From Candidatus Tayloriibacteriota bacterium (GTDB lineage: Bacteria > Patescibacteriota > Minisyncoccia > Phycocordibacterales > PALSA-1337), in assembly GCA_037129895.1 (NCBI GenBank), contig JBAXUB010000004.1, positions 60 through 64,059 on the forward strand: a DNA stretch of 64,000 bases, written 5' to 3'. The notes beneath the pieces were generated by a model. It did not search any database. It was not told where the DNA came from and worked only from the letters and a program-made list of their open reading frames with translations. A program made the position numbers and the translations under genes. The stretch's first letter is position 1; each line of letters opens with the position of its first letter. Below are positions 15,590 through 32,663 of the stretch, piece after piece.

Positions 15590-16003
15590 ATGATCACCGC
15601 CTCATTAAAGAATTACAGAATAGCACCACGTAAAGTCCGTCTAGTTGCAGACATGATACGAGGCAAGAGTGTTATCCAAGCTGAAAATATCTTGGTTGGT
15701 GCAGTCAAGAAAGCAACAAACCCACTCGGCGATCTATTGGCGTCAGCAGTAGCCAATGCATCTCATAATTTCAAGATTGAGAAAGATGCACTTTTCGTAA
15801 AGGAGATCCGTGTTGATCAGGGATATGTTTTGAAGCGCAGCCAACCTATGGCACGAGGTTCAGCTTTTCCTATAAAGAAGAGAACGAGTCATGTCACATT
15901 GACACTCGCTCCTATAGAAGCAAAGGTAAAGAAGCAAGCAGGAAAGAACAAGAAGCAAGGAGAAGAGAGCAAGGCAAAAGCAGCAAAGGTTGCAAAGAAA
16001 TAA
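15590..16003 (+). CDS. rplV: 50S ribosomal protein L22 (K-rich C-terminal extension)
   Basis: L22 fold signature. Expected position in the cluster. Confidence 0.85.
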   Translation: MITASLKNYRIAPRKVRLVADMIRGKSVIQAENILVGAVKKATNPLGDLLASAVANASHNFKIEKDALFVKEIRVDQGYVLKRSQPMARGSAFPIKKRTSHVTLTLAPIEAKVKKQAGKNKKQGEESKAKAAKVAKK

Positions 16004-16016
16004 TAAATTTACCAAA

Positions 16017-16694
16017 ATGTCACACACCGTACATCCATATTCACATAGACTAGGAATCATACGCGACTGGAAGAGCCGATGGTTTTCTTCTGATAAGCTA
16101 TATCGAACATCATTGAAAGGGGACCTCATCATTCGAGAATTCCTACAGAAAGAATTGCGTGCGAACTACGTTGGTGGTTTGGATATAGAGCGCAATCAGA
16201 AAGTTCTACGCGTTATAGTGAAGACTTCTCGCCCAGGTATGCTCATCGGCAAGTCTGGTGATGGAGTCGTCAAACTTCGCGAGAAAATATTGAAGCTATT
16301 ACGCAAAAACAAGGTTGAGCTAAAGAGTGTTGAACTCAAGCTCGACATAGAAGAGATCCGCAGTCCAGAATCGAATGCCGCTATAGCAGCTATGATGGTT
16401 GCAGAGTCACTAGAGAAGCGTCTACCATTCCGACGTGTTATGAAGCAGACAATCGAGAAGGTTATGGCCAATAGAGATGTAAAGGGTATCCGTATCCGTC
16501 TCGGAGGTCGTCTAGGTGGTGCGGAGATCGCACGCTCAGAAGAGCTCAAGAAAGGTCAAGTTCCACTTCAGACATTGCGTGCGGATATCGACTTTGCTCG
16601 TGAGAAGGCACACATGACTTATGGAGACATAGGTATCAAGGTTTGGATATATAAGGGTGAGATATTCAAGAAGGACCAAGTCGTAGCCAAGTAA
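16017..16694 (+). CDS. rpsC: 30S ribosomal protein S3
   Basis: VHPYSHRLGIIRDWKSRWF N-terminus, KH domain. Start at the internal Met. Confidence 0.9.
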   Translation: MSHTVHPYSHRLGIIRDWKSRWFSSDKLYRTSLKGDLIIREFLQKELRANYVGGLDIERNQKVLRVIVKTSRPGMLIGKSGDGVVKLREKILKLLRKNKVELKSVELKLDIEEIRSPESNAAIAAMMVAESLEKRLPFRRVMKQTIEKVMANRDVKGIRIRLGGRLGGAEIARSEELKKGQVPLQTLRADIDFAREKAHMTYGDIGIKVWIYKGEIFKKDQVVAK

Positions 16695-16730
16695 TTTCCA
16701 TTTTAACTTTTCAATTTTCATCAAACTACC

Positions 16731-17156
16731 ATGTTATTTCCTAAAAAAGTAAAACATCGCAAGTGGTTCACAATGCGTACTCATCCTGACAAGGAAATGT
16801 CGCACGCTGATACACGTGGAGTAAAATTGGCTTTCGGTTCTTTTGGATTGAAGGCTATGAAATATTCTCGTATCACATCTAACCAGATCGAAGCTGCTCG
16901 TAAGGTCATGGCACGCTATGCTACAAAGTCTGGAAAAGTTTGGATCAGAATTTTCCCGGATCATCCTTTTACACAGAAACCTGCAGAAGTGAAAATGGGA
17001 AAAGGAAAAGGTGATCCAGTTGGCTTTATCGCCGAGGTGAAGCCAGGTCGCATCATGTTCGAGATCGACGGAGTAGATGCAGTCGTTGCTGCAGAGGCAC
17101 TTCGTAAGGCGGGAACAAAGTTGCCAGTCAAGACAAAAGTAGTCTCGAGAATGTAA
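16731..17156 (+). CDS. rplP: 50S ribosomal protein L16
   Basis: MLFPKKVKHRK N-terminus and L16 core. Confidence 0.9.
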   Translation: MLFPKKVKHRKWFTMRTHPDKEMSHADTRGVKLAFGSFGLKAMKYSRITSNQIEAARKVMARYATKSGKVWIRIFPDHPFTQKPAEVKMGKGKGDPVGFIAEVKPGRIMFEIDGVDAVVAAEALRKAGTKLPVKTKVVSRM

Positions 17157-17171
17157 TCAATACCAAATACC

Positions 17172-17467: not shown

Positions 17468-17725
17468 ATGACAACAATCAAAACAACTGAAAATACACCA
17501 AAACGCCAGACATTTTCCGGTGTTGTTGTATCTGACAAGATGAAGGATACTACCGTAGTTGTCGTAGAGAGATACATCAAGCATGCAAAGTATCACAAGT
17601 TTTCAACAAAGAGGACAAAGATCTTGGCTCATGACCCAGGTAATACAAAGAAGATAGGAGACAAGGCCACGGTTGAAGCATGCAGACCAATATCCAAGAG
17701 AAAGGCATTCAAGATAATCGCATAA
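17468..17725 (+). CDS. rpsQ: 30S ribosomal protein S17
   Basis: GVVVSDKM..TVVV OB-fold signature. Confidence 0.9.
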   Translation: MTTIKTTENTPKRQTFSGVVVSDKMKDTTVVVVERYIKHAKYHKFSTKRTKILAHDPGNTKKIGDKATVEACRPISKRKAFKIIA

Positions 17726-17729
17726 TACC

Positions 17730-18101
17730 ATGATACAACCAAGAACGATCGTAAATATAGCAGACAATTCCGGAGCAAAGATCGGACGCATCTTCAAGGT
17801 ACTTGGTGCTACGAGAAAGCGCTATGCAGAGATCGGTGAGGTTGTCGTTCTATCAGTTCAGAAAGCAGAGCCTCGCAAGGCGATCAAGAAGAAAGACGTT
17901 TTGCATGCCGTAGTTGTCCGTCAAGTCAAACCTACACGACGTAAGGATGGTTCATATATACGTTTTGATGAGAATGCAGTCGTTATCATCGAAAAGGACA
18001 AGAAAGAACCAATCGCAGGACGTATATTCGGTCCTATACCTCGTGAAGTCGCCGAGGCAGGCTTCAAGACGATCGCTTCAAAGGCAGCTGAAATCGTATA
18101 A
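17730..18101 (+). CDS. rplN: 50S ribosomal protein L14
   Basis: MIQPRTIVNIADNSGAK N-terminus. Confidence 0.95.
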   Translation: MIQPRTIVNIADNSGAKIGRIFKVLGATRKRYAEIGEVVVLSVQKAEPRKAIKKKDVLHAVVVRQVKPTRRKDGSYIRFDENAVVIIEKDKKEPIAGRIFGPIPREVAEAGFKTIASKAAEIV

Positions 18102-18151
18102 TATTGTAGCGAAATTTTCCATTTTAACTTTTAAATTTTCCACTTACTACC

Positions 18152-18370
18152 ATGCATATCAAAAAAGGAGACACAGTCAAAATACTTTCAGGCGACGACA
18201 AGGGTAAAACCGGCAAAGTTGTAAAGGCTTTTCCTGCAACGAACAAGATCATTGTCGAGAAGGTGAATACTGTAAAGAAGCATGAGCGAGCTCGCAAAGA
18301 AGGCCAGAAAGGTCAGACAGTCGAAGTCGCTATGCCATTCGATGCTTCAAAGGCAGTAAAGACTGCATAA
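18152..18370 (+). CDS. rplX: 50S ribosomal protein L24 (short)
   Basis: IKKGDTVKILSGDDKGKTGKV KOW motif. Confidence 0.85.
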   Translation: MHIKKGDTVKILSGDDKGKTGKVVKAFPATNKIIVEKVNTVKKHERARKEGQKGQTVEVAMPFDASKAVKTA

Positions 18371-18406
18371 TTTTCCATTTTAACTTTTAAATTTAACATC
18401 AATACC

Positions 18407-18964
18407 ATGGCTTACAAATCCGTATACGAATTAAATAAAGATTCATTCAAGACATTGAAGGAACCATTGGGTCTCAAGAATCCAATGCAGACACCTCGCC
18501 TAGTCAAGGTAGTCATTTCTAGTGGTTTCGGTTCTGTGAAGGATAAAAAGAAGATCGAGATCATGGCAGACAGACTGGCTCGTATCACTGGCCAGAAGCC
18601 TGCTGTTCGTGTCACAAAGAAAGCTATAGCAACATTCAAGACTCGTGTTGGTGACCCTATCGGTTATCAGATCACACTTCGTGGTAAAAGGATGTGTGAA
18701 TTCTTGGATAGACTCATACACATTTCATTACCTCGAACAAAGGACTTCCGCGGCCTAGCCCGAACATCAGTTGATGCGATGGGGAACTACACGATCGGAG
18801 TGAAGGAACATACTATCTTCGCTGAGACTTCAGATGAAGACCTCAAGGATGTATTTGGTTTCGCTATCACTATCGTGACGACTTCGGATAACAAGAAATC
18901 GACATTGGCGTTTCTAGAATACTTGGGCATGCCTCTAAAGAAGGAAGGGGAGATAAAGAAATAG
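18407..18964 (+). CDS. rplE: 50S ribosomal protein L5
   Basis: PRLVKVVISSGFG motif and L5 core. Confidence 0.9.
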   Translation: MAYKSVYELNKDSFKTLKEPLGLKNPMQTPRLVKVVISSGFGSVKDKKKIEIMADRLARITGQKPAVRVTKKAIATFKTRVGDPIGYQITLRGKRMCEFLDRLIHISLPRTKDFRGLARTSVDAMGNYTIGVKEHTIFAETSDEDLKDVFGFAITIVTTSDNKKSTLAFLEYLGMPLKKEGEIKK

Positions 18965-19010
18965 GTTTTGTAGGCTCTAAAAGTGAATATATATTGAGAA
19001 AACTAGGCCC

Positions 19011-19039
19011 TTGACAGCCTAGTTCTCGTATGCTATACT
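19011..19039 (+). promoter_or_regulatory. candidate sigma70 promoter (TTGACA-17-TATACT) upstream of the DGR target gene
   Basis: Near-consensus -35 and -10 with 17-nt spacer. Preceded by an 8-bp hairpin aactaggc/gcctagtt. Confidence 0.5.
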
Positions 19040-19093
19040 TGTAATAGGTTCCTCATCCGGCGAAACATAATAAACCTCAAAAAAAGGAATAGA

Positions 19094-19285
19094 ATGAATC
19101 GCAGGAAAAACCGAGTGGATCACGCAATTGACAAGATGGAGTCGCTTCAGTACTTGTACTTCGCGGCTTGGGGTATAGTGCTCATAGGTGCGGTAAGAGC
19201 AGTCTTATACGCCTTCGGCATGAAACTCACCCAGTGTTGGGTGGATGCGCCGCTACGGTGGCTTGTCCATTTCATGGGTTTCTGA
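19094..19285 (+). CDS. small hypothetical membrane protein
   Basis: ORF with one hydrophobic helix. Low support. Confidence 0.25.
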   Translation: MNRRKNRVDHAIDKMESLQYLYFAAWGIVLIGAVRAVLYAFGMKLTQCWVDAPLRWLVHFMGF

Positions 19286-19388
19286 TTAATAACGTGATTC
19301 ATAAAAGACTTGCTCAAAAGGCAGGTCTTTTTCTATACGTCATGATATATTATTTTCTAAACTATTCAGATTATGTTAATATATTGAT

Positions 19389-21641
19389 GTGGAAAGAATC
19401 CCAGAAGAACCAAATTTTCATGAAATATCTGAAAAAAGGAAGGAACTCCGAGGGGCTATTTCTGAACTTGGTGATAAGGGACCTATTTTTGAAAAGCACT
19501 ATAAAAAACCACTAGCCGAGGCGGATGAGGAGGCGAGCAAATTCAAAATAGAAGATTTTGGTGGTATTAGTGGTGCCAAGAAAGTTCTCAAAAAACAAAA
19601 ATCCAAATACGAAGAAGATTTTTCTGAAGATAGGGCTCATATTGATTATGAAACTATTTTGAAGGTAGCGCCAGAAGTGGGCGAAGTGCAAAAGATAACA
19701 GAAGAGATTGCCGATCTTAAGGATTTTAGGATGCGTCGAATGTTAGAGCTTTTAAGCCCGCAAACTTCACTTTCAGCTAAAACGAGAAACGAAGCTGTGC
19801 TTAAAACTGTAAAAGAAGAAATCAGAGAAAACGAAGAAAAATTAGAAGAGGCTGACTCGTTGGTTTTACGCCAGGCAGAGCTTATCGAATACAAAGAAAA
19901 TTTGGCCAAGAGTGGTCATATTTGCATCACACCTAGTGTAGAAAAAGATCTGGAGGCGATAGGCGACAGAATGCTTACTGGCAAGCCGATGTTTCTACAT
20001 GGTCCTACAGGTACAGGAAAAACTTCTCTAGCCAGATTCGCTGCTACTCATTTTACTGGCAATGACCCGGAAATGGTTTTTTGTAATCCACAGACTAAGG
20101 AATCAAATGTCTGGGGGAAGACCGGTATTAAGCCAGCGGGAGGCGGAGCGATAGAAACTGTGGAGATTTATGGCCCGCTCGCCAAAGCAATGATAGACGG
20201 CAAGACCGTGATTTTTGATGAATTTACCGCTTTGCCAAAAGAGCAAATGGTTTTCATTAAAGGTGTTTTTAATGCCAAGGTGGGGGATAGAATAAATATT
20301 GTTGGCAATGGCATCGTCGAAATTGCTCCCGGTTTCCAAATGATTTTTACCGCCAACTTGAAATCTGAGAAAAATCCCGAGAGGCAGGATTTACCGCCAG
20401 AAATTGCCCGAGAATTTGAACAAAATAACCTAGAGGTCAAATATACACCCCAAGGTGAAGCTTACGACATTATGCTTTCTAGGCTTCTGAATCGAGACGG
20501 TTCTATCGATATGTCTTTTTATGATTTGAATACCACTCTGCCGAATCTTTGTAAAGTGATGACAGAAATCCAGGAATCGTATACCAACGAGACTGATAAA
20601 GAGGTGGCGAGAAGAGCAGGGGCAATGGATGCTTCCGGTAAGGTTTATTCCTTGAAAAAATTTGTGATGACACAGGGTTCAGTGGAAGCAATTTTGTCTT
20701 CATATTTGATAGAAAAACAGACGGGCAGGAAGGAGAGAAGTTTCGCAGAATTTTTGGATGAAAGATTCATGACAGCTCTGACTTTCAAAGAATACCCCAA
20801 AGAAGATAGAATCTTGGTGGCTAAGATTTTAGCGTCCAAAGGATTTTTGTTGACATTAAATGTCAAAGATTTGGATTTACCGGAAGATATTTTTCAGTTG
20901 AATACCATCAAAGCAATGCGTGGGGAAGATGCCGTAGAAGAACTCCAAAAAGAGTCTGGTGCGGTTAAACATCTAACCTTGAAGGAGGTGGCGGAGCTCG
21001 ACCCGTTCCATAAAAGGCCAGAATTATTGAAAAAACAAGCAGAAGCACTTTTGGGAGATGAAAAGAGCGAAAAAGACCCATTTTTAAAAAGCTTGAATAA
21101 AAAAATGGAGAAAATTTTTGGTAAGGAGAAACCAGTCAATATAATTGATCTATTGATCGCCCACGAACCTTTCCTCAGAGAAACTTTTGGTAAATGGTAC
21201 AGTGGTGATCAAAAGAAGATCGATATTCCTCAAAGACCATCTCTTGTCGACCCGCAATCGTTAGACTTTTCCTCCCTCAAATCCGATATTGACCCTTCAA
21301 AATTCGGTGAATACACCCTAAACCCCGAATGTCTCGGCCTAGACTTCAAAACTGCCAAAATCAAGGTCCTAGATATCCAAAAAGAAATCAAAACTAACAA
21401 ACTAACTGATATAGCCTCCATTGGTAAATACATTATTGACACCTACAGCAAAGACTATATCATCCCAGATATCTCCTTTTGGCAGTGGATGATTGAAAAA
21501 GGTGCCAATGCTCCAACTGAACTTCTGGATGGCAACTATCACTTTTGTTTCGGCTCTATCCTCCGCCGCTCGGGTGGCGATGCTGAGGTGCCTTATGCGA
21601 ATTGGCTTGGCTCTGAGTTCAGTCGGGATGCCCGCAGGTGA
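19389..21641 (+). CDS. AAA+ ATPase (MoxR/AAA_5-like) with C-terminal DGR variable-region domain; DGR target protein 1
   Basis: Walker A GPTGTGKTSLARF and Walker B VIFDEF. N-terminal coiled coil. The last ~130 nt match the TR with adenine-specific mismatches. Confidence 0.7.
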   Translation: MERIPEEPNFHEISEKRKELRGAISELGDKGPIFEKHYKKPLAEADEEASKFKIEDFGGISGAKKVLKKQKSKYEEDFSEDRAHIDYETILKVAPEVGEVQKITEEIADLKDFRMRRMLELLSPQTSLSAKTRNEAVLKTVKEEIRENEEKLEEADSLVLRQAELIEYKENLAKSGHICITPSVEKDLEAIGDRMLTGKPMFLHGPTGTGKTSLARFAATHFTGNDPEMVFCNPQTKESNVWGKTGIKPAGGGAIETVEIYGPLAKAMIDGKTVIFDEFTALPKEQMVFIKGVFNAKVGDRINIVGNGIVEIAPGFQMIFTANLKSEKNPERQDLPPEIAREFEQNNLEVKYTPQGEAYDIMLSRLLNRDGSIDMSFYDLNTTLPNLCKVMTEIQESYTNETDKEVARRAGAMDASGKVYSLKKFVMTQGSVEAILSSYLIEKQTGRKERSFAEFLDERFMTALTFKEYPKEDRILVAKILASKGFLLTLNVKDLDLPEDIFQLNTIKAMRGEDAVEELQKESGAVKHLTLKEVAELDPFHKRPELLKKQAEALLGDEKSEKDPFLKSLNKKMEKIFGKEKPVNIIDLLIAHEPFLRETFGKWYSGDQKKIDIPQRPSLVDPQSLDFSSLKSDIDPSKFGEYTLNPECLGLDFKTAKIKVLDIQKEIKTNKLTDIASIGKYIIDTYSKDYIIPDISFWQWMIEKGANAPTELLDGNYHFCFGSILRRSGGDAEVPYANWLGSEFSRDARR

Positions 21642-21681
21642 GACAATGACTGGCGCTCCAGCTATCGGGTTGCTCTCCTCG
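21549..21681 (+). other. DGR variable region VR1 (extends ~40 nt past the TGA stop at 21639..21641)
   Basis: 16 mismatches against the TR, 15 of them at TR adenines. The 3-prime ~35 nt (initiation of mutagenic homing, IMH-like) are identical to the TR. Confidence 0.8.
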
Positions 21682-21770
21682 AGAGGTAGTGTTTGTATTG
21701 ACCTTGGCCTTTTGACTTTTGTCTTGTCCCCATCGTCTGTTCTCTTTGATTCTTTTGGATTTTGCAATCC

Positions 21771-21800
21771 TCCCGAATGTAATCATTCGGGAGGATTTGT
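21771..21800 (+). other. perfect 13-bp hairpin atcctcccgaatg-taat-cattcgggaggat downstream of VR1
   Basis: Seen directly. Lies exactly at the boundary where the VR1 and VR2 duplicated modules diverge. Confidence 0.5.
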
Positions 21801-22035
21801 CCTATGTTATACTTGTCAGGCATATACAATAATGCGTCCGGGTACGCTTTGACGCGCTATATGCCGAGACCAACAGAACAGAGTCAAGTGCGGTTATCCA
21901 AACTTGAGCGTGTCTGCTGGTGGTGTAATAATTAAACACACTCTGTGAAGCCCACCAAGACATTATGATGTCAAAGACAAAAACCATCCGTGCTTAGGTG
22001 TCATCACGTGCGGGATTGGATATAGATGATGGGCT

Positions 22036-22165
22036 TCGCTAATCCTCCGCAACTCGGATGGCGATGCTAAGGTGCCTTATGCGAATTGGAATGGCACTGA
22101 GTTCAATCGGAATGCCAACAGGTTAGACAATGACTGGAACTCCAACTATCGAGTTGCTCTCCTCG
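22036..22165 (+). other. DGR template repeat (TR)
   Basis: Adenine-rich counterpart of VR1/VR2. AAC/AAT codons lie in register with the target reading frame. Confidence 0.8.
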
Positions 22166-22195
22166 TTACTGTGTTGATTTTCCACCAATTTGGAA

Positions 22196-22567
22196 TTATT
22201 TAAATTGGTGGTTTTGTTTTTTTATTTGGTTTTTCCAGCCGTATAACATTTTGCCGACTTCCTCAACTTTTTGCGACAGGCTAAAAAAAGTATTTTGATC
22301 TAGTCCTTTAAGCTCAAATAAAGCATAGAACATAAACTTAAGCGTATCATTCTTGGTAATGGCGGACATAATCAGTTCTGTGCGAAGGTGAGGTTCGCTA
22401 TAATATGCCGAAGCGATTGATTCTATCATCGTTGCTAGTATCGTCTCGATTCGTATACCCATGGAATAGCGAAGCGATTTGGGAATATGTTTCGTTTTGA
22501 GTTGCCAATCTACATAAAGAGCCAATACTTTTAAGCTTATGCTGGGCAGTTTGCTTGTCGTAGTCAT
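22196..22567 (-). CDS. avd: four-helix-bundle protein, DGR accessory Avd-like (23S rRNA intervening-sequence protein family)
   Basis: ~120-aa helical protein between TR and RT. Family resemblance to TIGR02436. Opposite strand to the RT. Confidence 0.5.
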   Translation of the reverse strand: MTTTSKLPSISLKVLALYVDWQLKTKHIPKSLRYSMGIRIETILATMIESIASAYYSEPHLRTELIMSAITKNDTLKFMFYALFELKGLDQNTFFSLSQKVEEVGKMLYGWKNQIKKQNHQFK

Positions 22568-22575
22568 TTTGCCTA

Positions 22576-23586
22576 TTGTATATGAAAAAAAATAAAAATA
22601 ACATACCCACCTTCGATGAAATTATAACCCTACCCTCGCTGTTTTCAGCATGGCGAGAGTTTGTTTGTGGCAAGAAATCAAAAGGTGATGTGGCGATATT
22701 TGCTATAAATTTATATTCTAATTTGCGAGCTCTAGGCACTGATTTGATGTATGACAGGTATCAGCATGGCGGATACGAATATTTTAAAGTCAAAGATCCG
22801 AAAGAACGCGACATTCATAAGGCGAGTGTGAGAGATCGGGTTGTTCATCATCTTTTATATTCTGCACTCTATGATCATTTTGACCATTATTTTATTTATG
22901 ATTCGTATTCTTGTCGGAATGGCAAAGGCACACACCGTGCAGTGGAGCGGTTTGCTAGATTTGTGTATTCTGTGAGCCAGAGAAATACGCAACCAGTTTG
23001 GATTCTTAAATGTGATATCCGAAAATGCTTTGCTTCAGTTGATCATAGTATCTTACTCGCTATATTAAAACGGCATATCTGTTGTCCGCATTTATCTGGT
23101 ATCGTTAGATCGGTAATTAGAAGCTTTTCAAGTGGCTTGGAAGGAAAAGGAATTCCGTTAGGTAATCTTACTAGCCAGTTATTTATTAATGTTTATCTTC
23201 ACGAATTAGACACATATATTAAAAGAACGCTCGGAGTAAAATATTATATCCGTTATGCTGATGATTTTGTAATTATGGCCAATAGCCGCTTCCTACTGGA
23301 CAATCAGCTCATCCTTATCCGCCATTTTTTGGAAACTAAACTCAAAATGCAAATTCATCCCGATAAAATATTCATTAAAACACTGGCGACAGGATTAGGT
23401 TTCCTCGGCTGGATAAAGTTTTTTGATCACTTGATTCCACGGGCTTCTACTAGACGGCGGATGTTTAAAACAATTAAAAATAGTCCGCATCGGGAAGTAA
23501 CAATACAGTCATATCTCGGAATGCTATCGCACGGGAATACGCACAAACTCCGGGAAATAATCCGGCAAATGCTTGATGGAAAATAG
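22576..23586 (+). CDS. DGR reverse transcriptase
   Basis: Motifs GIPLGNLTSQLFINVYL (IGxxxSQ hallmark of DGR RTs) and RYADDFVI (YxDD). 336 aa. Confidence 0.85.
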   Translation: MYMKKNKNNIPTFDEIITLPSLFSAWREFVCGKKSKGDVAIFAINLYSNLRALGTDLMYDRYQHGGYEYFKVKDPKERDIHKASVRDRVVHHLLYSALYDHFDHYFIYDSYSCRNGKGTHRAVERFARFVYSVSQRNTQPVWILKCDIRKCFASVDHSILLAILKRHICCPHLSGIVRSVIRSFSSGLEGKGIPLGNLTSQLFINVYLHELDTYIKRTLGVKYYIRYADDFVIMANSRFLLDNQLILIRHFLETKLKMQIHPDKIFIKTLATGLGFLGWIKFFDHLIPRASTRRRMFKTIKNSPHREVTIQSYLGMLSHGNTHKLREIIRQMLDGK

Positions 23587-23618
23587 AAAAAGCAGAAGAA
23601 ATTTGGTAGAATGACAAT

Positions 23619-25508
23619 ATGGAACGACTAGATATTATAGAAACAAAAACAGGAAAAAAGCCAGAAGAAATTGCTGAGGATAGCGAGCATGCTGAGGCGG
23701 TGGCATTGGTGGAAAAGCATAGGGATTTTTTTGAGCATTATGCCAAAGGTAAGATAAAAATTGAGCCGGCACCTAAAAGCATACCCACTTTTGCTTTTAA
23801 TTTGGAAAAGAACACCATTTATGTAAATTCAATGTTCTATAAAAAGCTGGGTTTGTCTGAAGAAAAAACAGTCTTTGCAACTCTACATGAGATAGAACAT
23901 TTTATGGAAAAATTGCAGATTCTCTCTGAAGATGGCGGTGAGAAATCTTTTGATAAGTATTTAAAGAGAATCAAAGCTTCTAAAGCCTATTCTCTGATGG
24001 ATAATTGCGTGGCGGATATTCGCGAGAATCGGGCAGTGGTTGGAAAGACCAATAAAGGAATGGGTGAGCTGGAGGAAAAAACCTACAAAGAGGATCTGTT
24101 CGCGGAAACCGATTTTACCAAACAACCTAGGCATATCCAACTTAGTCAGGCACTTTTGAGAGAGGCTAGAGTACCGGATGAAAAGTGCGATGTATCGTCG
24201 GAAGTGAGGCAAGCGCTTGATGAGGTGGGAAAAGTGAAAGGTTTGATGGAAATAATGACGAACCCAGAAACGCCAATGTCCATGCGTATGAAATTGCAAG
24301 ATAAATATATCTGGCCGAAAGTGGAATCACTTTTGGAAAAAGATATGGAGGATAAGAAAAAACAAAAAGAGCAAGAAAAAAAGGAAAAAGAAAAGGGAGA
24401 AGGGAATGATGGTCGAGAATCAGGTGAAGGTAAGGAAGGGCAAGAGGGTGATAAGGACGAAGAAACAGACCCGAATAAAACATTTGCAGACGAGTATGCC
24501 AGGGCGGAGGCGAAATTTCCCGAAGCTGTGCCGATAGAAGAGATAGAAAAAGCCTTGAAAGAATGGAAAGAAGCGCAAAAAGGTAAAGACAATAATGATA
24601 AAGCAGACGAGGACTATGCAAAGAAAATCGGCGTGGAGAAAGAAGATTTGCAGGACTACAGGAAAATAGTAGAAAATTTGGAAAAAACTGTGAATCCGGA
24701 AACGGATGTTGGTATATTAGACGAATTAAAAAATCTTTTTTCTAGAATTATTGCCAAACGAATAAAGGTTGCTCAAGTACCAAAGTATCCAGTAGAAGAA
24801 GGGGATGAATTGACCGATCCGGCGCAACTCGTGGCAGATGTAAAATCTGGCAATCTTCAACCGAAAGTCTGGGAAGATACAGAAATTATAGAAAAAAAGG
24901 GAAACAGATTTGGTGAAGTAGAAATCACCTTGGTTTGTGATCAGTCTGGTTCCATGGCGGGGCAGAAAGCGGAAGAGCAGAGAAAGTCTGCTGTTTTGGT
25001 AATGGAGGTATTGAAAGAGTTTGGGGAGCTGTGTGAAGCAGAAAAGATAAATATAGACAAACCGCTCGAAGTAAAGTCTGAGATTTACGGTTTCGGTGCT
25101 GGTGATGATGAAAAGCCAATGAAAAAGATGTCTGCGGAGCTTGGTGAAGCGGAAAGGATAGAAGTGCTGAAAAGACTTTATGATGTGCCAGGTGGAACGA
25201 CTGATTTCAATTGTTTGGAAGCAATAGATGGCAATTTGACTGAAAATATAAAAAATAAAATCAAGATTGGCGAGCTTAAAAAAATAGTGATTGTCTTTAC
25301 CGATGGTGGAAGTGATAATCCAGGGAGAGTGCAGGGTGTTTTAAAAAGCTTGAGAGATGGTGGAGTGATAGCGATCGGTGTGGGGATTACTAGCGAAGGA
25401 ACACCAGTCTTGTCTACTTATGCGCCGAATGCATTGGTGGTGGAAGATGTAAGTAAATTACCAATCGTTTTGGGTGAACTTTTAAAAGAACATTTGAAAG
25501 ATTTATAG
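23619..25508 (+). CDS. zincin-like (HEIEH) metallopeptidase motif + acidic low-complexity linker + C-terminal von Willebrand factor A domain protein
   Basis: HExxH in TVFATLHEIEHFM. MIDAS motif CDQSGSM and ...VFTDGGSD in the C-terminal region. Confidence 0.6.
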   Translation: MERLDIIETKTGKKPEEIAEDSEHAEAVALVEKHRDFFEHYAKGKIKIEPAPKSIPTFAFNLEKNTIYVNSMFYKKLGLSEEKTVFATLHEIEHFMEKLQILSEDGGEKSFDKYLKRIKASKAYSLMDNCVADIRENRAVVGKTNKGMGELEEKTYKEDLFAETDFTKQPRHIQLSQALLREARVPDEKCDVSSEVRQALDEVGKVKGLMEIMTNPETPMSMRMKLQDKYIWPKVESLLEKDMEDKKKQKEQEKKEKEKGEGNDGRESGEGKEGQEGDKDEETDPNKTFADEYARAEAKFPEAVPIEEIEKALKEWKEAQKGKDNNDKADEDYAKKIGVEKEDLQDYRKIVENLEKTVNPETDVGILDELKNLFSRIIAKRIKVAQVPKYPVEEGDELTDPAQLVADVKSGNLQPKVWEDTEIIEKKGNRFGEVEITLVCDQSGSMAGQKAEEQRKSAVLVMEVLKEFGELCEAEKINIDKPLEVKSEIYGFGAGDDEKPMKKMSAELGEAERIEVLKRLYDVPGGTTDFNCLEAIDGNLTENIKNKIKIGELKKIVIVFTDGGSDNPGRVQGVLKSLRDGGVIAIGVGITSEGTPVLSTYAPNALVVEDVSKLPIVLGELLKEHLKDL

Positions 25509-25528
25509 TTTAAGCCTATAATTGCAAT

Positions 25529-26344
25529 ATGAATTTTGAATCTATCGTAAACATGGCCAAGGGGTCAAAGAAAGAGGAAATAGTCAAAAAACCGGAAAAA
25601 TCCCAAGAGGAACTCCGAGGAGCTTTGGAGTCAAAATTAGAATCTTCGAAACCAGTCTTGCAAGAGGGAATCAAAGAATATGAGCAGGCTTTGAAAGATG
25701 ATACTTTCGAAGACCAAGATGGTGAGGCAGAAGGAGCTGGTGAGAAAAGGAAGGAAGCTATGCAAGCCAAGCTCAGCTCCATGTTTGACCGAGCGGAAAA
25801 AATGAGGAAGCAATTGGACAGTGGTGAAATTCTCGAGCAAATTCCTGAGGCCGATACTATCTTACGGGAACCTTTCCTCAGAGAAACTTTTGGTAAATGG
25901 TACAGTGGTGATCAAAAGAAGATCGATATTCCTCAAAGACCATCTCTTGTCGACCCGCAATCGTTAGACTTTTCCTCCCTCAAATCCGATATTGACCCTT
26001 CAAAATTCGGTGAATACACCCTAAACCCCGAATGTCTCGGCCTAGACTTCAAAACTGCCAAAATCAAGGTCCTAGATATCCAAAAAGAAATCAAAACTAA
26101 CAAACTAACTGATATAGCCTCCATTGGTAAATACATTATTGACACCTACAGCAAAGACTATATCATCCCAGATATCTCCTTTTGGCAGTGGATGATTGAA
26201 AAAGGTGCCAATGCTCCAACTGAACTTCTGGATGGCAACTATCACTTTTGTTTCGGCTCTATCCTCCGCCGCTCGGGTGGCGATGCTGAGGTGCCTTATG
26301 CGAATTGGCTTGGCTCTGAGTTCAGTCGGGATGCCCGCAGGTGA
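25529..26344 (+). CDS. DGR target protein 2 (short; unrelated acidic N-terminus fused to the same VR-bearing C-terminal domain)
   Basis: Last 159 aa identical to target 1. DNA 25868..26469 identical to 21165..21766. Confidence 0.65.
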   Translation: MNFESIVNMAKGSKKEEIVKKPEKSQEELRGALESKLESSKPVLQEGIKEYEQALKDDTFEDQDGEAEGAGEKRKEAMQAKLSSMFDRAEKMRKQLDSGEILEQIPEADTILREPFLRETFGKWYSGDQKKIDIPQRPSLVDPQSLDFSSLKSDIDPSKFGEYTLNPECLGLDFKTAKIKVLDIQKEIKTNKLTDIASIGKYIIDTYSKDYIIPDISFWQWMIEKGANAPTELLDGNYHFCFGSILRRSGGDAEVPYANWLGSEFSRDARR

Positions 26345-26384
26345 GACAATGACTGGCGCTCCAGCTATCGGGTTGCTCTCCTCG
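26252..26384 (+). other. DGR variable region VR2 (identical to VR1)
   Basis: Exact copy of VR1 including the TGA stop. Confidence 0.75.
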
Positions 26385-26496
26385 AGAGGTAGTGTTTGTA
26401 TTGACCTTGGCCTTTTGACTTTTGTCTTGTCCCCATCGTCTGTTCTCTTTGATTCTTTTGGATTTTGCATTATAGTTATCATGGAATTGTTCCAAA

Positions 26497-26583
26497 GTCG
26501 GAGTGGTGAAATTGGCAAACACGCAGCGTTCAGAACGCTGTGAGCTCACGCTCTTGGGGGTTCAAGTCCCCCCTCCGGCACCA
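26497..26583 (+). tRNA. tRNA-Leu (anticodon CAG), CCA encoded
   Basis: Manual fold: acceptor GUCGGAG/CUCCGGC, anticodon loop UUCAGAA, long variable arm, T-arm GGGGG-UUCAAGU-CCCCC. Close overall to E. coli tRNA-Leu(CAG). Confidence 0.85.
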
Positions 26584-26617
26584 AAATCAGCAGACCACTA
26601 AGCAAGCCAATAATTTG

Positions 26618-26727
26618 GCTTGCGGCGGGGGACTTGAAAAGGTCGAGTATATTTTCGAGCGGCTATGCCGTGAGAAAATACGAGACCTGTACCGAAGCTG
26701 TAAGCTTCAAGTCCCCCCTCCGGCACA
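26618..26727 (+). repeat. ~110-nt structured element (X-Y) whose last 22 nt exactly repeat the tRNA-Leu 3-prime end (T-loop to discriminator); followed by a T9 run
   Basis: ttcaagtcccccctccggcac occurs at 26563..26584 (tRNA) and 26706..26727. 5-prime gggggacttgaa pairs with 3-prime ttcaagtccccc. Two internal hairpins covary with the copy at 1..170. Confidence 0.55.
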
Positions 26728-26905
26728 TTTTTTTTTGCTATTTTCCTCATATTTTGCTAGTCTATATTCTACTGGTTTGAGGTATCAGCTCTGATCTATT
26801 CTCTCAGCAAAATATCTCCGATCTGTAAATGCGCGCGTAGCTGTCTTGGTAGGTCTAAGACATCGGGCGGGCAAATAATGTTTCGTTGATAAATAGAGTT
26901 TATAT

Positions 26906-26978
26906 GCGCGCGTAGCTCAGTTGGTAGAGCACGCCACTGATACTGGCGGGGTCCCAGGTTCGAATCCTGGCGCGCGCA
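26906..26978 (+). tRNA. tRNA-Ile (anticodon GAU)
   Basis: Cloverleaf: GCGCGCG acceptor, D-arm gctc/gagc, anticodon loop CUGAUAC, T-arm ccagg-ttcgaat-cctgg. Confidence 0.85.
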
Positions 26979-27087
26979 CCCGAGTAAATCCGCTTATGCG
27001 GATTTTTAGTTGAGGTTTTATGTATGAGAGCGGAATTTTCCATTATGTCAATATTGCTTTTTTCTCTTCAAATGAGAAAATTGGAGC

Positions 27088-27939
27088 ATGGAGAAAGAGA
27101 AAAAATATTTAGCAATATTTGAAGGTAAACAAATTCGCCGACACTGGGATGGTGGTTCGGAGAAGTGGTATTTTTCTGTAGTTGATGTTGTTGGTGCGTT
27201 ATCAGGTAGCGAGCGCCCAAGAAAATATTGGGATGATCTAAAGCGACGTCTTTTTGATGAAGGAAGTGAAGTGTCCGCAAAAATCGGACAGTTGAAAATG
27301 GTGGCCGAGGATGGTAAATTGCGTGACACTGACTGTGCTGAAACCGAGGTGATGCTCCGTATTGTCCAGTCGATCCCTTCTCCAAATGCTGAACCATTCA
27401 AACTCTGGCTTGCAAAGGTTGGTTATGAACGGCTTGAGGAGACTGCAGATCCTGAACTCGCCATATTACGTGCACTAAAAACATACCTGAGTAAAGGTTA
27501 TTCATTGAATTGGATAAACCAACGCTTGAAAAGCATTGAGATACGCAAGGAACTTACAGATGAATGGGAAAAGTGTGGCGTAAAAGAAGGGTTTGAGTTT
27601 GCTATACTGACAGACGAGATATCAAAGGCTTGGACAGGGATGACAACTAGAGAGTACAAAAGCTTAAAAAATTTAAAGAAAGAAAATCTACGAGACAATA
27701 TGACAAACCTCGAATTGGTACTAAATATGTTAGCAGAGACCGCTACAACGGAGATTTCCAAGAAGGAAGCACCAAGAGGATTTGAACCGAGCAGAAAAGT
27801 TGCAAAAGATGGTGGAAGTATTGCTGGCAATGCGAGAAAACAAATCGAGCAGAAAATTGGAAAATCTATTTTGACAAGTGACAATTTCGAGACATTTAAG
27901 AATAAGTCTCTTAAGGAAAAAGGCAGTCAATCTATTTAA
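27088..27939 (+). CDS. Bro-N domain protein, DinD-like (paralog of 1675..2520)
   Basis: Motif LAIFEGKQIRRHWDGGSEKWYFSVVDVVGAL. ~65% identical to the first copy throughout. Confidence 0.55.
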   Translation: MEKEKKYLAIFEGKQIRRHWDGGSEKWYFSVVDVVGALSGSERPRKYWDDLKRRLFDEGSEVSAKIGQLKMVAEDGKLRDTDCAETEVMLRIVQSIPSPNAEPFKLWLAKVGYERLEETADPELAILRALKTYLSKGYSLNWINQRLKSIEIRKELTDEWEKCGVKEGFEFAILTDEISKAWTGMTTREYKSLKNLKKENLRDNMTNLELVLNMLAETATTEISKKEAPRGFEPSRKVAKDGGSIAGNARKQIEQKIGKSILTSDNFETFKNKSLKEKGSQSI

Positions 27940-27957
27940 ATTTGATCACAAGCCATA

Positions 27958-28542
27958 ATGTCCCTATCATTCACCAAAGAAGCTTTAAAAAAGTTCAAAA
28001 CTCAAGGGTCACTTTTTCCGAGTACATCGGCGTTGGGTAAGATGATGATAAAGCCGATCGTTATGAAACCCGGCATGATAATAGTAGAGTTTGGTGCAGG
28101 CACAGGATCGATTACCAAGGAATTGATTCCCAGGTTGCGATATGGTGCGACATTTCTCGTTTTTGAAAATAACAAAGTGTTGGCGGAAAAGTTGCGTGAT
28201 GACTTAGTACCATATATAGAAGCCACGAAATCTCATAGTAAGGTCATTTTGATAGAAGATGATGCAGCGAACTTGAGAGCACATCTCGATAGACTCGGTC
28301 TACCTTTGGCAGATTATGTTATTTCTGGATTACCTATAGGGAATTTCAAGAGACACGAACGACAGAAAATATTCGATGCTATAAATGAAGGAATGAAAGA
28401 GGATGGTATCTATGTTCAATTTCAATACCTATTGGCAAGCTTCCTGCATGTTCGTCGAGTATTCGACGCCAAGGTGATAGGCTATGAAGTTAGGAATGTA
28501 CCACCGGCATTCGTCTATGTTTGCAAGAAGAAAGCAGAGTAA
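27958..28542 (+). CDS. small class I SAM-dependent methyltransferase
   Basis: Gly-rich SAM loop IVEFGAGTGSITKEL. Acidic residue at the end of beta2. Confidence 0.5.
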   Translation: MSLSFTKEALKKFKTQGSLFPSTSALGKMMIKPIVMKPGMIIVEFGAGTGSITKELIPRLRYGATFLVFENNKVLAEKLRDDLVPYIEATKSHSKVILIEDDAANLRAHLDRLGLPLADYVISGLPIGNFKRHERQKIFDAINEGMKEDGIYVQFQYLLASFLHVRRVFDAKVIGYEVRNVPPAFVYVCKKKAE

Positions 28543-28618
28543 CCTAGGTACATTGTTACTGAACATTCGCTAGATTTGAATATTTTGAGAAAGGTCTAGT
28601 TTGGTGTAAAATTAGCCC

Positions 28619-29614
28619 ATGAATACAAATACATATATGAGTCCCAAGGACTTTTTTCTGCACCTGGGTGCAACCGTAGCCTTGTATGCAAGTGCTATCG
28701 CTATTATCAATCTGGCATTTGAGATAATGAATAGACTGCTGCCAGACACACTCTCCAATTATTGGAGTTCTAGTTCTATAGCATGGCCGATATCTATGCT
28801 AGTTGTCCTCGTCCCTATTCTATATACATTGGAAAACCTCATCAACCGAGATATCAGGAAGATTGCCGAGAAAAAAGATATCTGGATCAGGAGATGGAGG
28901 ATATATCTCACATTGTTTCTGTCAGGCGTCACTATCGCCGTTGATGTGATAACTCTGATCAATACATATTTAAATGGTGAGATATCGAGTAGGTTCATCT
29001 GGAAAGTTATCATCATTCTCATAATTTCTGCCGTCATATTTGCTTATTATATTTTGGCAAAAAATGTAGCCGGTGATCCGAGTGTTGAGTCGATAACAGG
29101 TGTAAAATCAAAAAAGCTTTGGCAGAGAATACTGGCAATAGTTGGAATAGTCGTTACTTTATCTGCGATCATCGCTGGCTTCATGATCGTCGGGTCTCCG
29201 AATACTCAAAGATCACTCCGTTTTGACAGTCAGAGAGTCAATGACCTCTCGAATATCCAGTGGCAGATCGTTACATATTGGCAGAGAGCAGGTAATATGC
29301 CAGATAGTCTATATGATCTCCGTGATCCGATCTCAAGTCTACAAATACCTCTAGATCCAGAGACAGGAAAACAATATGAATATGTTTCTATGAACAAGGA
29401 CCCATTGTCATTCGGCTTGTGTGCGACTTTCGATCTCGCTAGCAATTTCAAGAATAATGCTGTAAGCTCTCAAACTCAGCCGATAAAAGCTATGAATAAT
29501 GATGGGCTAGATTATGGCTGGGAACATCCAGCGGGATACTATTGTTTCGAAAAGAAGATCGATCCGAAACTTTACCCACGATCTGGTACAGTAGAAAAGC
29601 TATTTAATATTTAA
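28619..29614 (+). CDS. hypothetical integral membrane protein
   Basis: Several TM helices in the N-terminal half, soluble C-terminal domain. Confidence 0.4.
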   Translation: MNTNTYMSPKDFFLHLGATVALYASAIAIINLAFEIMNRLLPDTLSNYWSSSSIAWPISMLVVLVPILYTLENLINRDIRKIAEKKDIWIRRWRIYLTLFLSGVTIAVDVITLINTYLNGEISSRFIWKVIIILIISAVIFAYYILAKNVAGDPSVESITGVKSKKLWQRILAIVGIVVTLSAIIAGFMIVGSPNTQRSLRFDSQRVNDLSNIQWQIVTYWQRAGNMPDSLYDLRDPISSLQIPLDPETGKQYEYVSMNKDPLSFGLCATFDLASNFKNNAVSSQTQPIKAMNNDGLDYGWEHPAGYYCFEKKIDPKLYPRSGTVEKLFNI

Positions 29615-29633
29615 TATTCTTTTTATTATATTT

Positions 29634-31049
29634 ATGAATTTAGGCAAAAAAACCAAGATTGTCTGTACCATAGGACCAGCTACCAAATCAGCAGAGAAGC
29701 TCGAACAACTCATGAACGCAGGGATGAATGTGATGCGTCTCAACTTTTCTCACGGTGATTTTCCAGACCACCAAGATCGAGTAGATACTATGAGGAAAAT
29801 AATGCAGGATACAGGTAAGACTGTTGCAATACTCCAAGACCTTTCTGGACCAAAGATCCGTATCGGTAAATTCAAGGACGGCAAGATCACATTGAAGAAA
29901 GATCAGACTTTTACACTGACGACAGATGATTGTATAGGTGATGAGACAAGGGTATTCATCAATTATCCAAATCTACCAAAAGAGGTCAAAGTCGGCGGTA
30001 CGATCATGCTCCAAGATGGGACGAAGAGGTTGGAGATCATAGAAATAAAAGGAAATGACATCATTACTACAGTGAAAGTTGGAGGCACTCTAGGAGATCA
30101 TCGTGGCGTGAATGTTCCAGGAGCTAGTCTCTCGATCAGTTCTCTCACGGAGAAAGATCGTGCTGATCTAGAATTTGGTATAAAGAACAAAGTTGATTAT
30201 GTAGCTCTCTCGTTCGTACGCCGAGCTGATGATATCAAGGAGCTCCGTGCATTGCTCGAGAAGTCAGGATCTCACGCTCACATCATCGCCAAGATAGAAA
30301 CTCCGGAGGCTCTGCATAATATAGACGATATATTGGACGCTTCTGATGGTATCATGGTTGCTCGCGGTGATCTCGCTATCGAGATTCCCGCTGAAGAAGT
30401 TCCGTTGGTGCAGAAGATGATCATCCATAAATGTAACTCTGTAGGTAAGCCAGTTATCACCGCTACTCAGATGTTGGAGTCAATGCTCGAAAGTCCTGTA
30501 CCTACTCGTGCAGAAGTTTCTGATATAGCGAATGCTATCATCGACGGTACTGATGCGATCATGCTTTCAGAGGAAACTACTCTAGGAAAATTCCCAATAG
30601 AAGCGGTAGAGATAATGACTCGTGTAGCGACTAGGGTTGAGAAGGAAGTATATACTCGGGATACTATAGCCGAGTATGATGAATCACACGGCGTGACTGA
30701 CGTTGTATCGCAGTCTGCAGTTCGTATGGCTCATGCGGTCAATGCCAAGCTGATAGTGGCCCTAACACGTTCTGGCCGTACTGCTAGGATGATCGCACGT
30801 TATAGGCCAGCTGAGGCTATCCTGGCTCTTTCTGATGCCAAAGAGAATGCCAATAAGCTCATGCTCACCTTCGGCTGTTTCCCTATGGTCGCGCCAACAT
30901 TCAATTCCGCTGATGAGATCATGGATATCGTCCGTAAGATGACATTGGATAATAAACTAGTGAAAAAAGGGGATAAAGTCATCATTGTTGCTGGTATGCC
31001 TATGGGAGTTTCTAGGGAGACTAACTTTATTGTGGTGGAGACGTTATAG
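29634..31049 (+). CDS. pyk: pyruvate kinase
   Basis: KIVCTIGPA, MNVMRLNFSHG and MVARGDLAIEIP motifs. Confidence 0.9.
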   Translation: MNLGKKTKIVCTIGPATKSAEKLEQLMNAGMNVMRLNFSHGDFPDHQDRVDTMRKIMQDTGKTVAILQDLSGPKIRIGKFKDGKITLKKDQTFTLTTDDCIGDETRVFINYPNLPKEVKVGGTIMLQDGTKRLEIIEIKGNDIITTVKVGGTLGDHRGVNVPGASLSISSLTEKDRADLEFGIKNKVDYVALSFVRRADDIKELRALLEKSGSHAHIIAKIETPEALHNIDDILDASDGIMVARGDLAIEIPAEEVPLVQKMIIHKCNSVGKPVITATQMLESMLESPVPTRAEVSDIANAIIDGTDAIMLSEETTLGKFPIEAVEIMTRVATRVEKEVYTRDTIAEYDESHGVTDVVSQSAVRMAHAVNAKLIVALTRSGRTARMIARYRPAEAILALSDAKENANKLMLTFGCFPMVAPTFNSADEIMDIVRKMTLDNKLVKKGDKVIIVAGMPMGVSRETNFIVVETL

Positions 31050-31825: not shown

Positions 31826-31836
31826 CAATAGAATGT

Positions 31837-32625: not shown

Positions 32626-32663
32626 AAAATTGAATAGTCAAAGATAGGGATTGAATCATAATT

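Follow-up and report, generated by a model that had tools for sequence, protein, structure and literature searches.

The locus described here raises the question of why the homology between a variable region (VR) and its template repeat (TR) continues, together with adenine-specific differences, beyond an in-frame TGA at which the target gene ends. An earlier note on this DNA had offered two explanations: either a very recent T-to-G mutation truncated a domain that had been diversified while still coding, or UGA is a sense codon. The whole 64,000-nt stretch, hereafter called the window, was analysed together with related loci from public collections. Taken together, the TGA is very probably a nonsense allele of a diversity-generating retroelement (DGR) that is read with the standard code; it is secure in VR2, and the copy in VR1 is likely a product of the assembler.

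The window contains an intact DGR of a Parcubacteria-type (CPR) bacterium, which uses the standard genetic code. The element comprises, in this order, target gene 1 with VR1, the TR, a probable avd gene on the opposite strand, the gene for the reverse transcriptase (RT), a gene coding for a vWA-domain protein and target gene 2 with VR2 (Table 1). The DGR is located on the chromosome, and a ribosomal-protein operon adjoins it.

Table 1. Positions of the DGR components, repeats and stop codons in the window.
Feature	Position	Strand	Description
Target gene 1	19389..21641	+	750 aa as assembled; AAA_5 ATPase and C-terminal variable domain; ends at the premature TGA
Repeat copy 1	21165..21766	+	3' part of target 1 including VR1, plus 85 nt downstream
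VR1 as assembled	21558..21681	+	identical to VR2
Premature TGA in VR1 as assembled	21639..21641	+	TTA at the corresponding TR position
Codons lost after the TGA	21642..21690	+	16 codons, translated DNDWRSSYRVALLER, and TAG stop at 21688-21690; four adenine-specific changes
Hairpin	21766..21797	+	perfect 14-bp stem; just past repeat copy 1; absent after VR2
TR	22042..22165	+	TTA (Leu) at 22123-22125; reads ILRNSDGDAKVPYANWNGTEFNRNANRLDNDWNSNYRVALL in the VR frame
avd (accessory variability determinant)	22196..22567	-	123 aa; between TR and RT gene
DGR reverse transcriptase	22582..23586	+	334 aa, intact; Pfam RVT_1, E=1.6e-21
vWA-domain protein	23619..25508	+	629 aa; between RT gene and target 2; Pfam VWA, E=1.3e-8
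Target gene 2	25529..26344	+	271 aa, truncated; orthologues P0001, P0020 and P0022 have 287 aa
Repeat copy 2	25868..26469	+	100% identical to copy 1 over 602 nt
VR2	26261..26384	+	
Premature TGA in VR2	26342..26344	+	family-conserved TAG at 26391-26393

Target 1 matches the Pfam family AAA_5 with E=4.5e-11, and the translation of the RT gene contains the motifs LGNLTSQ, which is of the [I/V/L]GxxxSQ type, and YADD (YxDD). The RT protein is 100% identical to that of the related locus L003, and Avd differs from its L003 orthologue by a single residue; relatives with the same RT protein possess intact targets. The avd open reading frame matches Pfam PF22296 (bAvd) with E=5.7e-8 and 33.7 bits, which is below the curated cut-off of 40 bits, and its orthologues carry precomputed PF22296 matches. 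The vWA gene is kept in all orthologous loci, and its product is likely a partner of the AAA_5 target. For the 271-aa protein of target 2 (P0019), an exact match is found at NCBI in a Ca. Taylorbacteria MAG (MEI6304697.1). An Rfam scan of positions 19000-27500 yielded nothing beyond two tRNAs, and the 85 nt past the VR that both targets have in common contain no inverted repeat of at least 8 nt. The hairpin behind repeat copy 1 is missing after VR2, which makes a role as terminator of target 1 more likely than one as a cruciform for DGR target recognition.

The TGA within the VR frame

The TR aligns without gaps to both VRs over 124 nt, and 15 of the 16 differences fall on TR adenines (P ~2e-8, with adenines at 32 of the 124 TR positions). 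The sole exception is a T-to-G change, from TR position 22124 to VR position 21640, which turns TTA into TGA. The homology extends for another 40 nt past this TGA, as the earlier note had described, and all four differences in this part, at positions 21654, 21655, 21661 and 21668, again lie at adenines (P ~0.004). It ends at 21681 in VR1 and 22165 in the TR, beyond which partial similarity is seen. Five further VR variants from related loci likewise show 17-24 adenine changes and between zero and one non-adenine change each.

As judged from the alignment of the family, the TGA is a premature nonsense allele, which lies 16 codons ahead of a conserved C-terminus ending in RVALLER and a stop. Read through, the VR1 frame runs from ARR across the TGA and the 16 codons given in Table 1 to the TAG. 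In 17 of 17 homologues, the position of the TGA is occupied by L, V or I, and the proteins end 16 codons further on at RV[VA]LLE[RK], exactly as in the read-through frame; W, R, V, L and L are nearly invariant in the part of the alignment that follows the TGA position. Orthologous loci with 98.6-99.6% DNA identity encode a target 1 of 766 aa (L001, L003 and L004) and a target 2 of 287 aa. Furthermore, only one of ten VR variants contains the stop, and the other nine read TTA, TTG or TTC. The comparison with relatives, which had been proposed as a check, thus gave a sense codon at the TGA site of the orthologous targets, and the idea of a recent T-to-G truncation of an ancestral ...RVALLER end agrees with the sense codon and the read-through stop in all homologues and in all remaining VR variants. 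Scans of sequence collections with an adenine-degenerate 45-nt VR/TR pattern retrieved no more TGA variants; they returned the JGI contigs already found and one new locus, L011. The reverse case, in which the TR rather than the VR is the mutated partner, was rejected: the TR of both lineages has TTA, and its leucine is the family consensus. An AF2 model (mean pLDDT 85) predicts with confidence a final β-strand at residues 280-286, which would be lost on truncation. Conservation and the predicted model together suggest that the truncated protein would be non-functional.

The adenine-specific changes behind the stop do not imply that diversification took place in a domain that was still coding, as had been proposed, because retrohoming rewrites a VR en bloc. 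According to the established DGR mechanism, mutagenic retrohoming would transfer the complete TR to the VR while introducing errors at adenines, regardless of whether the recipient is coding or not, and the changes downstream of the stop would be the remainder of one cDNA-derived patch. If the whole VR is replaced in this way, homology and adenine-specific changes beyond an internal stop are to be expected. The variation among relatives suggests that retrohoming is active in this organism: the known VRs comprise ten distinct variants, located on nearly identical backbones, and two lineages that are 3 SNPs apart over 4.7 kb differ completely in VR1 as well as in VR2. L014, L017 and L021 carry the TR of the window, and that of the relatives differs at position 14 alone. 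Each VR matches the base of its own TR at this position, and the private G of the window's TR is also found in the VR; therefore, the transfer from TR to VR postdates the split of the lineages.

The 602-nt repeat and the number of TGA alleles

The earlier note had stated that both VRs hit the TGA. This is true for the window as assembled; however, it probably reflects one target 2 allele, which the assembler duplicated in target 1. VR1 and VR2 both lie within a perfect repeat of 602 nt, so that they do not represent independent replicates. Most of the RT-bearing contigs are 3.7-4.8 kb pieces, which are bounded by this repeat, and the majority of short-read contigs of the locus begin or end at it.

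Two contigs of sample ERZ27300156, which was assembled independently of the window, place the variants on their flanks. In contig L014, an intact VR1 is joined to the flank of target 1, whereas contig L022 joins the TGA variant to the downstream flank of target 2. L022 is 44 kb long and matches the window over 11.8 kb except for one gap of a single base. It starts exactly 140 nt ahead of the first difference between VR1 and VR2, and the contig names (k141_...) suggest that the assembly was made with k = 141. L014 and L017, the latter from a JGI sample, match each other exactly and belong to the lineage of the window, from which they show no difference outside the VR in 4.7 kb; both carry a different, intact VR1 on the flank specific to target 1. 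A similar discrepancy is seen in another pair of assemblies, as L003 (JGI) and L004 (an NCBI MAG) are identical over 16.8 kb, save that VR1 of L004 holds the VR2 sequence. Based on these data, the TGA allele can securely be placed in VR2 of target 2. The copy in target 1 most likely arose when the assembler wrote the VR2 path through both copies of the repeat, and the true VR1 of the lineage probably differs from the assembled one.

Alternatively, both targets could truly carry the TGA, which would have spread from one to the other when the two copies of the 602-nt repeat recombined or underwent gene conversion, thereby making the identity of VR1 and VR2 a biological one. The window itself shows the TGA in both targets, and a second assembly from JGI, a contig of 74.8 kb, also gives a target 1 of 750 aa (P0029). 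In addition, the repeat parts outside the VRs are 100% identical within the genome of L003, which suggests ongoing homogenisation of the copies. We nevertheless regard this explanation as unlikely: in ERZ27300156, which represents the same lineage, the TGA is found on the target 2 flank only, and the intact VR1 of this sample recurs in a JGI sample. Moreover, as the pair L003/L004 illustrates, a VR1 replaced by VR2 can be the sole difference between two assemblies of the same population. The 271-aa target 2 protein P0019 is without a JGI source, and the JGI contig encoding P0029 may itself be a repeat-collapsed join. For short-read MAGs in general, two identical VRs may represent a single VR that was assembled twice, as their repeat cannot be phased.

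Source and fate of the T-to-G change

The T-to-G difference is a non-adenine change, as had been noted earlier, but this does not force the conclusion that it is an ordinary point mutation, since a non-adenine error of the RT is equally possible. It could have been introduced by the DGR RT into the last cDNA that rewrote the VR or by a replication error soon thereafter. We lean slightly towards an RT error, an assessment that draws on two or three events and which the data do not decide. Among the VRs of the target family, three non-adenine changes are found in 552 non-adenine sites, which is above the local background (P = 0.006 or 0.035). All three adjoin a TR adenine and two of them are T-to-G changes just 5' of an A; this adjacency is not significant (P = 0.08). 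For bRT-Avd, non-adenine misincorporation in vitro amounts to 0.3-1.6%, which is at or near the detection baseline (PMC7826257).

The TR still encodes TTA, and RT and Avd are intact; therefore, the next homing event would be expected to overwrite the TGA, and the truncation is probably both recent and reversible. Non-adenine information of the TR has been shown to be transferred with 100% efficiency, and engineered DGRs restored defective reporters (PMC12875486, PMC3240598).

It is tempting to speculate that the stop represents a selected, reversible OFF state, in which non-adenine errors knock out the target and homing restores it in a manner resembling phase variation. The TGA allele has been seen in more than one assembly, although these independent assemblies may share raw reads or derive from one lake system. 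The DGR machinery and the TR are intact, and the non-adenine changes described above adjoin adenines and exceed the background frequency. However, this reading builds on three events, whose adjacency to adenines is not significant, and a stop in one of ten VR variants suits a neutral or mildly deleterious transient; in addition, no sign of regulation was seen. A selected switch is thus very unlikely. It is also improbable that the RT of this family occasionally errs at non-adenines, with a preference for bases next to template adenines, and thereby produces sporadic target knock-outs that homing can reverse. If true, such errors would create stops that are otherwise forbidden by the AAY codon design, and a DGR target in a natural CPR population would have a knock-out state that is built into the element and can be reversed.

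It is highly improbable that the G stems from an error in sequencing or consensus calling, or from a chimeric consensus of a mixed VR population, and that no cell has the allele. VRs are heterogeneous in populations, the consensus of a MAG can blend variants, and assemblers clearly mishandle the 602-nt repeat; however, L022 contains an exact copy of the 124-nt variant with the G, which is also represented in protein P0029. Furthermore, position 82, at which the G is found, is a non-adenine position, where blending of adenine-mutagenised variants cannot yield a G.

Genetic code and comparison with known systems

UGA is reassigned in some CPR lineages, namely Gracilibacteria and Absconditabacteria, and the frame beyond the TGA is open and conserved through RVALLER and the following stop, as would be the case if UGA were decoded by code 25 or code 4, by local read-through or as selenocysteine and the target were full length. 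Nevertheless, this explanation can be dismissed almost entirely: with code 11, the coding density of the window is 92%, TGA ends 22 of its 76 open reading frames, many of them as ATGA start/stop overlaps with the next gene, EF-Tu and pyruvate kinase are full length, and the TGA-terminated RadC has a complete Pfam domain. When TGA is read as sense, no pair of open reading frames in the same frame fuses, and the longest one, which is that with the premature TGA, grows only from 753 to 769 codons. A tRNA scan of the window detected tRNA-Leu(CAG) and tRNA-Ile(GAT) only and no UCA anticodon, and the RNA behind the TGA folds into no stable structure (z = +0.84) and nothing SECIS-like. Lineages identical across 4.7 kb have TTG or TTA (Leu) at the TGA codon, and the residue conserved in the family is Leu and not Gly, Trp or Sec. 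Moreover, Taylorbacteria and Staskawiczbacteria, the labels of the source MAGs, are not code-25 lineages. Open reading frame statistics, stop contexts, Pfam coverage, tRNA scan and RNA fold thus led to the rejection of UGA recoding at the level of the window, and the 64-kb window shows none of the hallmarks of a UGA-reassigned code. The doubt that the earlier note had voiced about a decoded UGA was justified, as TGA is a normal stop in the window.

The locus serves chiefly as a warning that the VR of a DGR is easily misread: adenine-specific changes and TR homology downstream of a stop call for neither recoding nor a formerly coding past. The nonsense allele is unremarkable and belongs to an element of a known type; knowledge of DGRs and of genetic codes is not altered by it. 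It provides a clean natural case, in which a non-adenine change created a stop in a VR, and the template and the enzymes that would erase it are intact. The analysis also documents a CPR target family, which consists of an AAA_5 protein, its small paralogue and a vWA partner.

The prototype of such elements is the DGR of the Bordetella phage BPP-1 (mtd/TR/avd/brt). The element described here resembles it in that the differences between TR and VR are nearly all located at TR adenines, the TR is rich in AAC and AAT codons, the RT carries an [I/V/L]GxxxSQ motif and an Avd-like protein is encoded. In both systems, the VR is positioned at the very 3' end of the target gene and the natural stop follows a few nucleotides past the TR homology, namely after 7 nt here and, in BPP-1, within a 4-bp spacer behind the VR (PMC3240598). 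In contrast to BPP-1, the element lies on the chromosome of a CPR bacterium, has two targets with a common 602-nt repeat, encodes avd on the opposite strand between TR and RT gene and shows no hairpin or cruciform directly after the VR in the common repeat. One of its VRs contains an internal stop, and a Foldseek search with the variable domain gave no match, including to Mtd and other structures with a C-type-lectin fold.

Further counterparts are the DGRs of CPR and DPANN 'microbial dark matter' and the DGR-diversified NTPase/vWA sensors of conflict systems (PMC8144416, PMC10907252, PMC7159879). As in these systems, the host is an uncultured bacterium with a small genome, an AAA_5 NTPase is combined with a C-terminal variable domain, a vWA protein is encoded next to it and one TR serves several targets. 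Unlike in them, the variable domain is without a Pfam model, and at the more distant locus L006, members of the target family are found alongside AAA and vWA genes but without a called RT. With regard to its expected fate, the allele is comparable to the engineered kanR repair assays (PMC3240598, PMC12875486), in which faithful copying of non-adenine TR positions can restore the open reading frame of a defective VR. In these assays, the defects were engineered and under selection, whereas the defect described here arose naturally and its repair is a prediction.

Architecture and setting of the retroelement

The region is a diversity-generating retroelement (DGR), a known class of element: the template repeat (TR) and the variable regions VR1 and VR2, which end target genes 1 and 2, show adenine-specific differences, the reverse transcriptase (RT) is of the DGR type and the targets are truly diversified, while the Avd match is weak (PF22296, below the cut-off). 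As to IMH/hairpin elements, the 85 nt that follow the VR in both targets contain no inverted repeat of 8 nt or more, and a 14-bp hairpin (21766-21797) is present behind target 1 alone. A ribosomal-protein operon (EF-Tu, L3, L2, S3 ... L5) lies upstream. The exact target-2 protein is deposited at NCBI as MEI6304697.1, from a 73.7-kb contig of a 'Candidatus Taylorbacteria' MAG, which identifies the host as a Parcubacteria-type CPR bacterium.

Features of the DGR and the adjacent tRNA gene
Feature	Position	Strand	Basis
Target 1, AAA_5 ATPase with variable C-terminal domain, 750 aa	19389-21641		ORF list and Pfam
VR1	21558-21681		gapless alignment to TR
TR, 124 nt	22042-22165		repeat alignment
Avd-like gene	22196-22567	minus	PF22296 match, score under cut-off
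Reverse transcriptase, 334 aa	22582-23586		RVT_1; LGNLTSQ and YADD motifs
vWA protein	23619-25508		Pfam
Target 2, 271 aa	25529-26344		ORF list
VR2	26261-26384		gapless alignment to TR
tRNA-Leu(CAG)	26497-26583		tRNA scan

Between the TR and the RT gene, the Avd-like gene runs on the opposite strand, so that any TR-to-RT spacer RNA would be antisense to avd, and this antiparallel arrangement is kept in all orthologous loci. The variable C-terminal domain of both targets comprises around 170 aa with an invariant KFGEYTLNPE motif. It has no Pfam family, and a Foldseek search of the confident AlphaFold model of orthologue P0001 against PDB and BFVD gave no match for it; the domain may represent a DGR variable-protein fold that is divergent or has gone unrecognised. 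Two distant homologues of the variable-domain protein, P0015 and P0018, are encoded beside an AAA_5-like ATPase and a vWA protein in another assembly (GCA_964616565.1, CAZTTN010000017.1, 6458-13689), and no RT gene was called at that locus; the module of AAA protein, vWA protein and small paralogue therefore seems to exist independently of a DGR.

Window positions 17724-26727 form a 9-kb block, containing rplN, rplX, rplE, the whole DGR cassette and tRNA-Leu, that shares 98.6% identity with contigs from a different CPR population (L003, 2197-11210), whereas the adjacent S3/L16 genes (15685-17160) are just 77-83% identical and no match extends past 26727. Such a pattern suggests that the DGR island was recently transferred laterally or recombined, anchored by its conserved flanks, or else that the contig is chimeric. 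The 3' end of tRNA-Leu(CAG), TTCAAGTCCCCCCTCCGGCAC (26561-26581), has an exact second copy 145 nt downstream (26706-26726), right at which the shared block terminates. The duplication resembles an att-type scar left by integration at a tRNA gene; a tRNA-Ile and a Bro-N protein (27088-27939) lie downstream.

A premature stop in the variable region

TR and VR differ at 16 positions, 15 of which fall on TR adenines (P about 2e-8). The sole non-adenine difference is a T-to-G change (TR 22124, VR 21640), which turns the TTA of the TR into TGA (21639-21641 and 26342-26344). Homology to the TR extends 40 nt beyond the TGA and includes four changes, all at adenines (21654, 21655, 21661 and 21668; P about 0.004), and the read-through frame is DNDWRSSYRVALLER, followed by TAG at 21688-21690. 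Base-by-base comparison and translation thus bear out the description in the earlier note, which had left two explanations: a recent truncating mutation, or decoding of UGA as an amino acid.

Within the limits of one window, recoding is rejected by ORF statistics, TGA-ended genes, tRNA set and RNA folding. With standard decoding, 92% of the window is taken up by non-overlapping ORFs, and TGA terminates 22 of 76 ORFs, many of them as ATGA-type overlaps with the next gene. Reading TGA as sense lengthens the longest ORF, which is the target itself, from 753 to only 769 codons. RadC has a complete Pfam domain and is terminated by TGA, EF-Tu and pyruvate kinase are full length, the only tRNAs in the window are Leu(CAG) and Ile(GAT), with none of the UCA anticodon, and RNA structure after the TGA is no better than in shuffled sequences (z = +0.84).

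Judged from comparison with relatives, the TGA is a premature stop. A search with the read-through C-terminal domain recovered 18 homologues; the 17 aligned at full length have Leu, or in rare cases Val or Ile, where the window has TGA and all run on to a common end, RV[VA]LLE[RK], which coincides with the read-through stop. The stretch cut off in the window contains near-invariant W, R, V, L and L residues. At orthologous loci (98.6-99.6% DNA identity), targets 1 and 2 have 766 and 287 aa, each exceeding its window counterpart by exactly 16 residues, and among ten distinct VR versions (DNA and protein variants pooled) nine have TTA, TTG or TTC at this position and only that of the window has TGA. 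The 287-aa orthologue, as modelled by AlphaFold (mean pLDDT 85; >90 in the C-terminal domain), has residues 280-286 in a confident beta-strand that the truncated protein lacks, so that loss of function is likely. Another homologue, P0017 (176 aa), tracks P0005 and turns into unrelated sequence after '...DLA'; it looks like a frameshifted copy, which suggests that disrupted alleles of this target family occur elsewhere too.

One nonsense allele or two

VR1 and VR2 are enclosed by a 602-nt block that is 100% identical between 21165-21766 and 25868-26469, and short-read assembly fails at this repeat, as four lines of evidence show. Contigs with the RT of this DGR are mostly 3.7-4.8-kb pieces that start or end at the repeat. 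L003, a JGI contig, and L004, an NCBI MAG contig, differ at 25 positions in 16,793 nt, all of them in VR1, where L004 has the VR2 sequence. Contig L014, from sample ERZ27300156, departs from window 21165-26008 at only 21 positions, all in VR1, and joins an intact VR1 (TTG, ...RVALLER*) to the target-1-specific flank; L017, obtained from a JGI sample, has a sequence equal to that of L014. A second ERZ27300156 contig, L022, is equal to window 26130-37937 and joins the TGA variant to the target-2-specific flank. It starts exactly 140 nt ahead of the first VR1/VR2 difference, as would be expected from a de Bruijn assembly at k = 141, the value suggested by the contig names (k141_...). Aligned over 11.8 kb, L022 and the window show a single gap: pyruvate kinase, one 471-aa gene in the window and in contig L023, is split into two gene calls (179 and 265 aa) in L022 (3505-4922 versus window 29634-31049), a one-base indel between assemblies of the same lineage.

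These linkages assign the nonsense allele to target 2, and the TGA copy in target 1 is most likely the VR2 path written twice by the assembler. The earlier observation that both VRs hit TGA holds for the sequence as assembled, but probably concerns one VR. Real gene conversion between the repeats, leaving TGA in both targets, would agree with the identity of the non-VR part of the repeat within genomes and with a JGI assembly that likewise gives a 750-aa target 1; given the flanks of L014 and L022, it is considered unlikely. The TGA is best regarded as a nonsense allele of an ordinary kind within a hypervariable region, its double appearance probably owing to an unphaseable repeat.

Origin and fate of the nonsense allele

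Mutagenic retrohoming makes a cDNA of the TR transcript, with errors specific to adenines, and the entire VR is exchanged for this cDNA. TR bases other than adenine are carried over faithfully (PMC12875486; PMC3240598). The T-to-G change is beyond the reach of adenine mutagenesis and could have arisen in the last cDNA, through an RT error at a non-adenine base, or later, through a replication error. Across six DNA-level VR variants, three of 552 non-A sites (0.54%) are changed, namely T82G (window), T105G (L014) and G29C (the more diverged copy L001), against 3 of about 4,720 sites (0.064%) for the non-VR divergence of the two lineages; the excess is modestly significant (P = 0.006; P = 0.035 without L001). 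For bRT-Avd, in vitro misincorporation was reported as 0.5% at U, 0.3% at C and 1.6% at G, values equal or close to the baseline of detection (PMC7826257). All three changes (L014 394-517, L001 7804-7927, window 21640) directly adjoin a TR adenine, two being T-to-G immediately 5' of A, an adjacency that is not significant for three events (P = 0.08). We lean slightly towards an RT error. Relatives whose targets are intact have an identical RT protein and an Avd with one residue changed, and the TR keeps TTA, so the next homing event should bring back Leu; that RT errors beside adenines create reversible knock-out states is very doubtful.

An internal stop would leave the copied patch at full length. 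At position 14, the window TR has a private G where relatives have T, and the VR also has G, indicating that, since the lineages diverged, this TR has served to rewrite the complete VR, position 82 included. Since retrohoming copies the VR as a block, the post-stop adenine changes do not need the proposed history of diversification while this stretch was still coding. The layout is that of the prototype: here, TR homology stops 7 nt short of the natural stop, and in BPP-1 the mtd stop lies inside the 4-bp spacer directly after the VR (PMC3240598).
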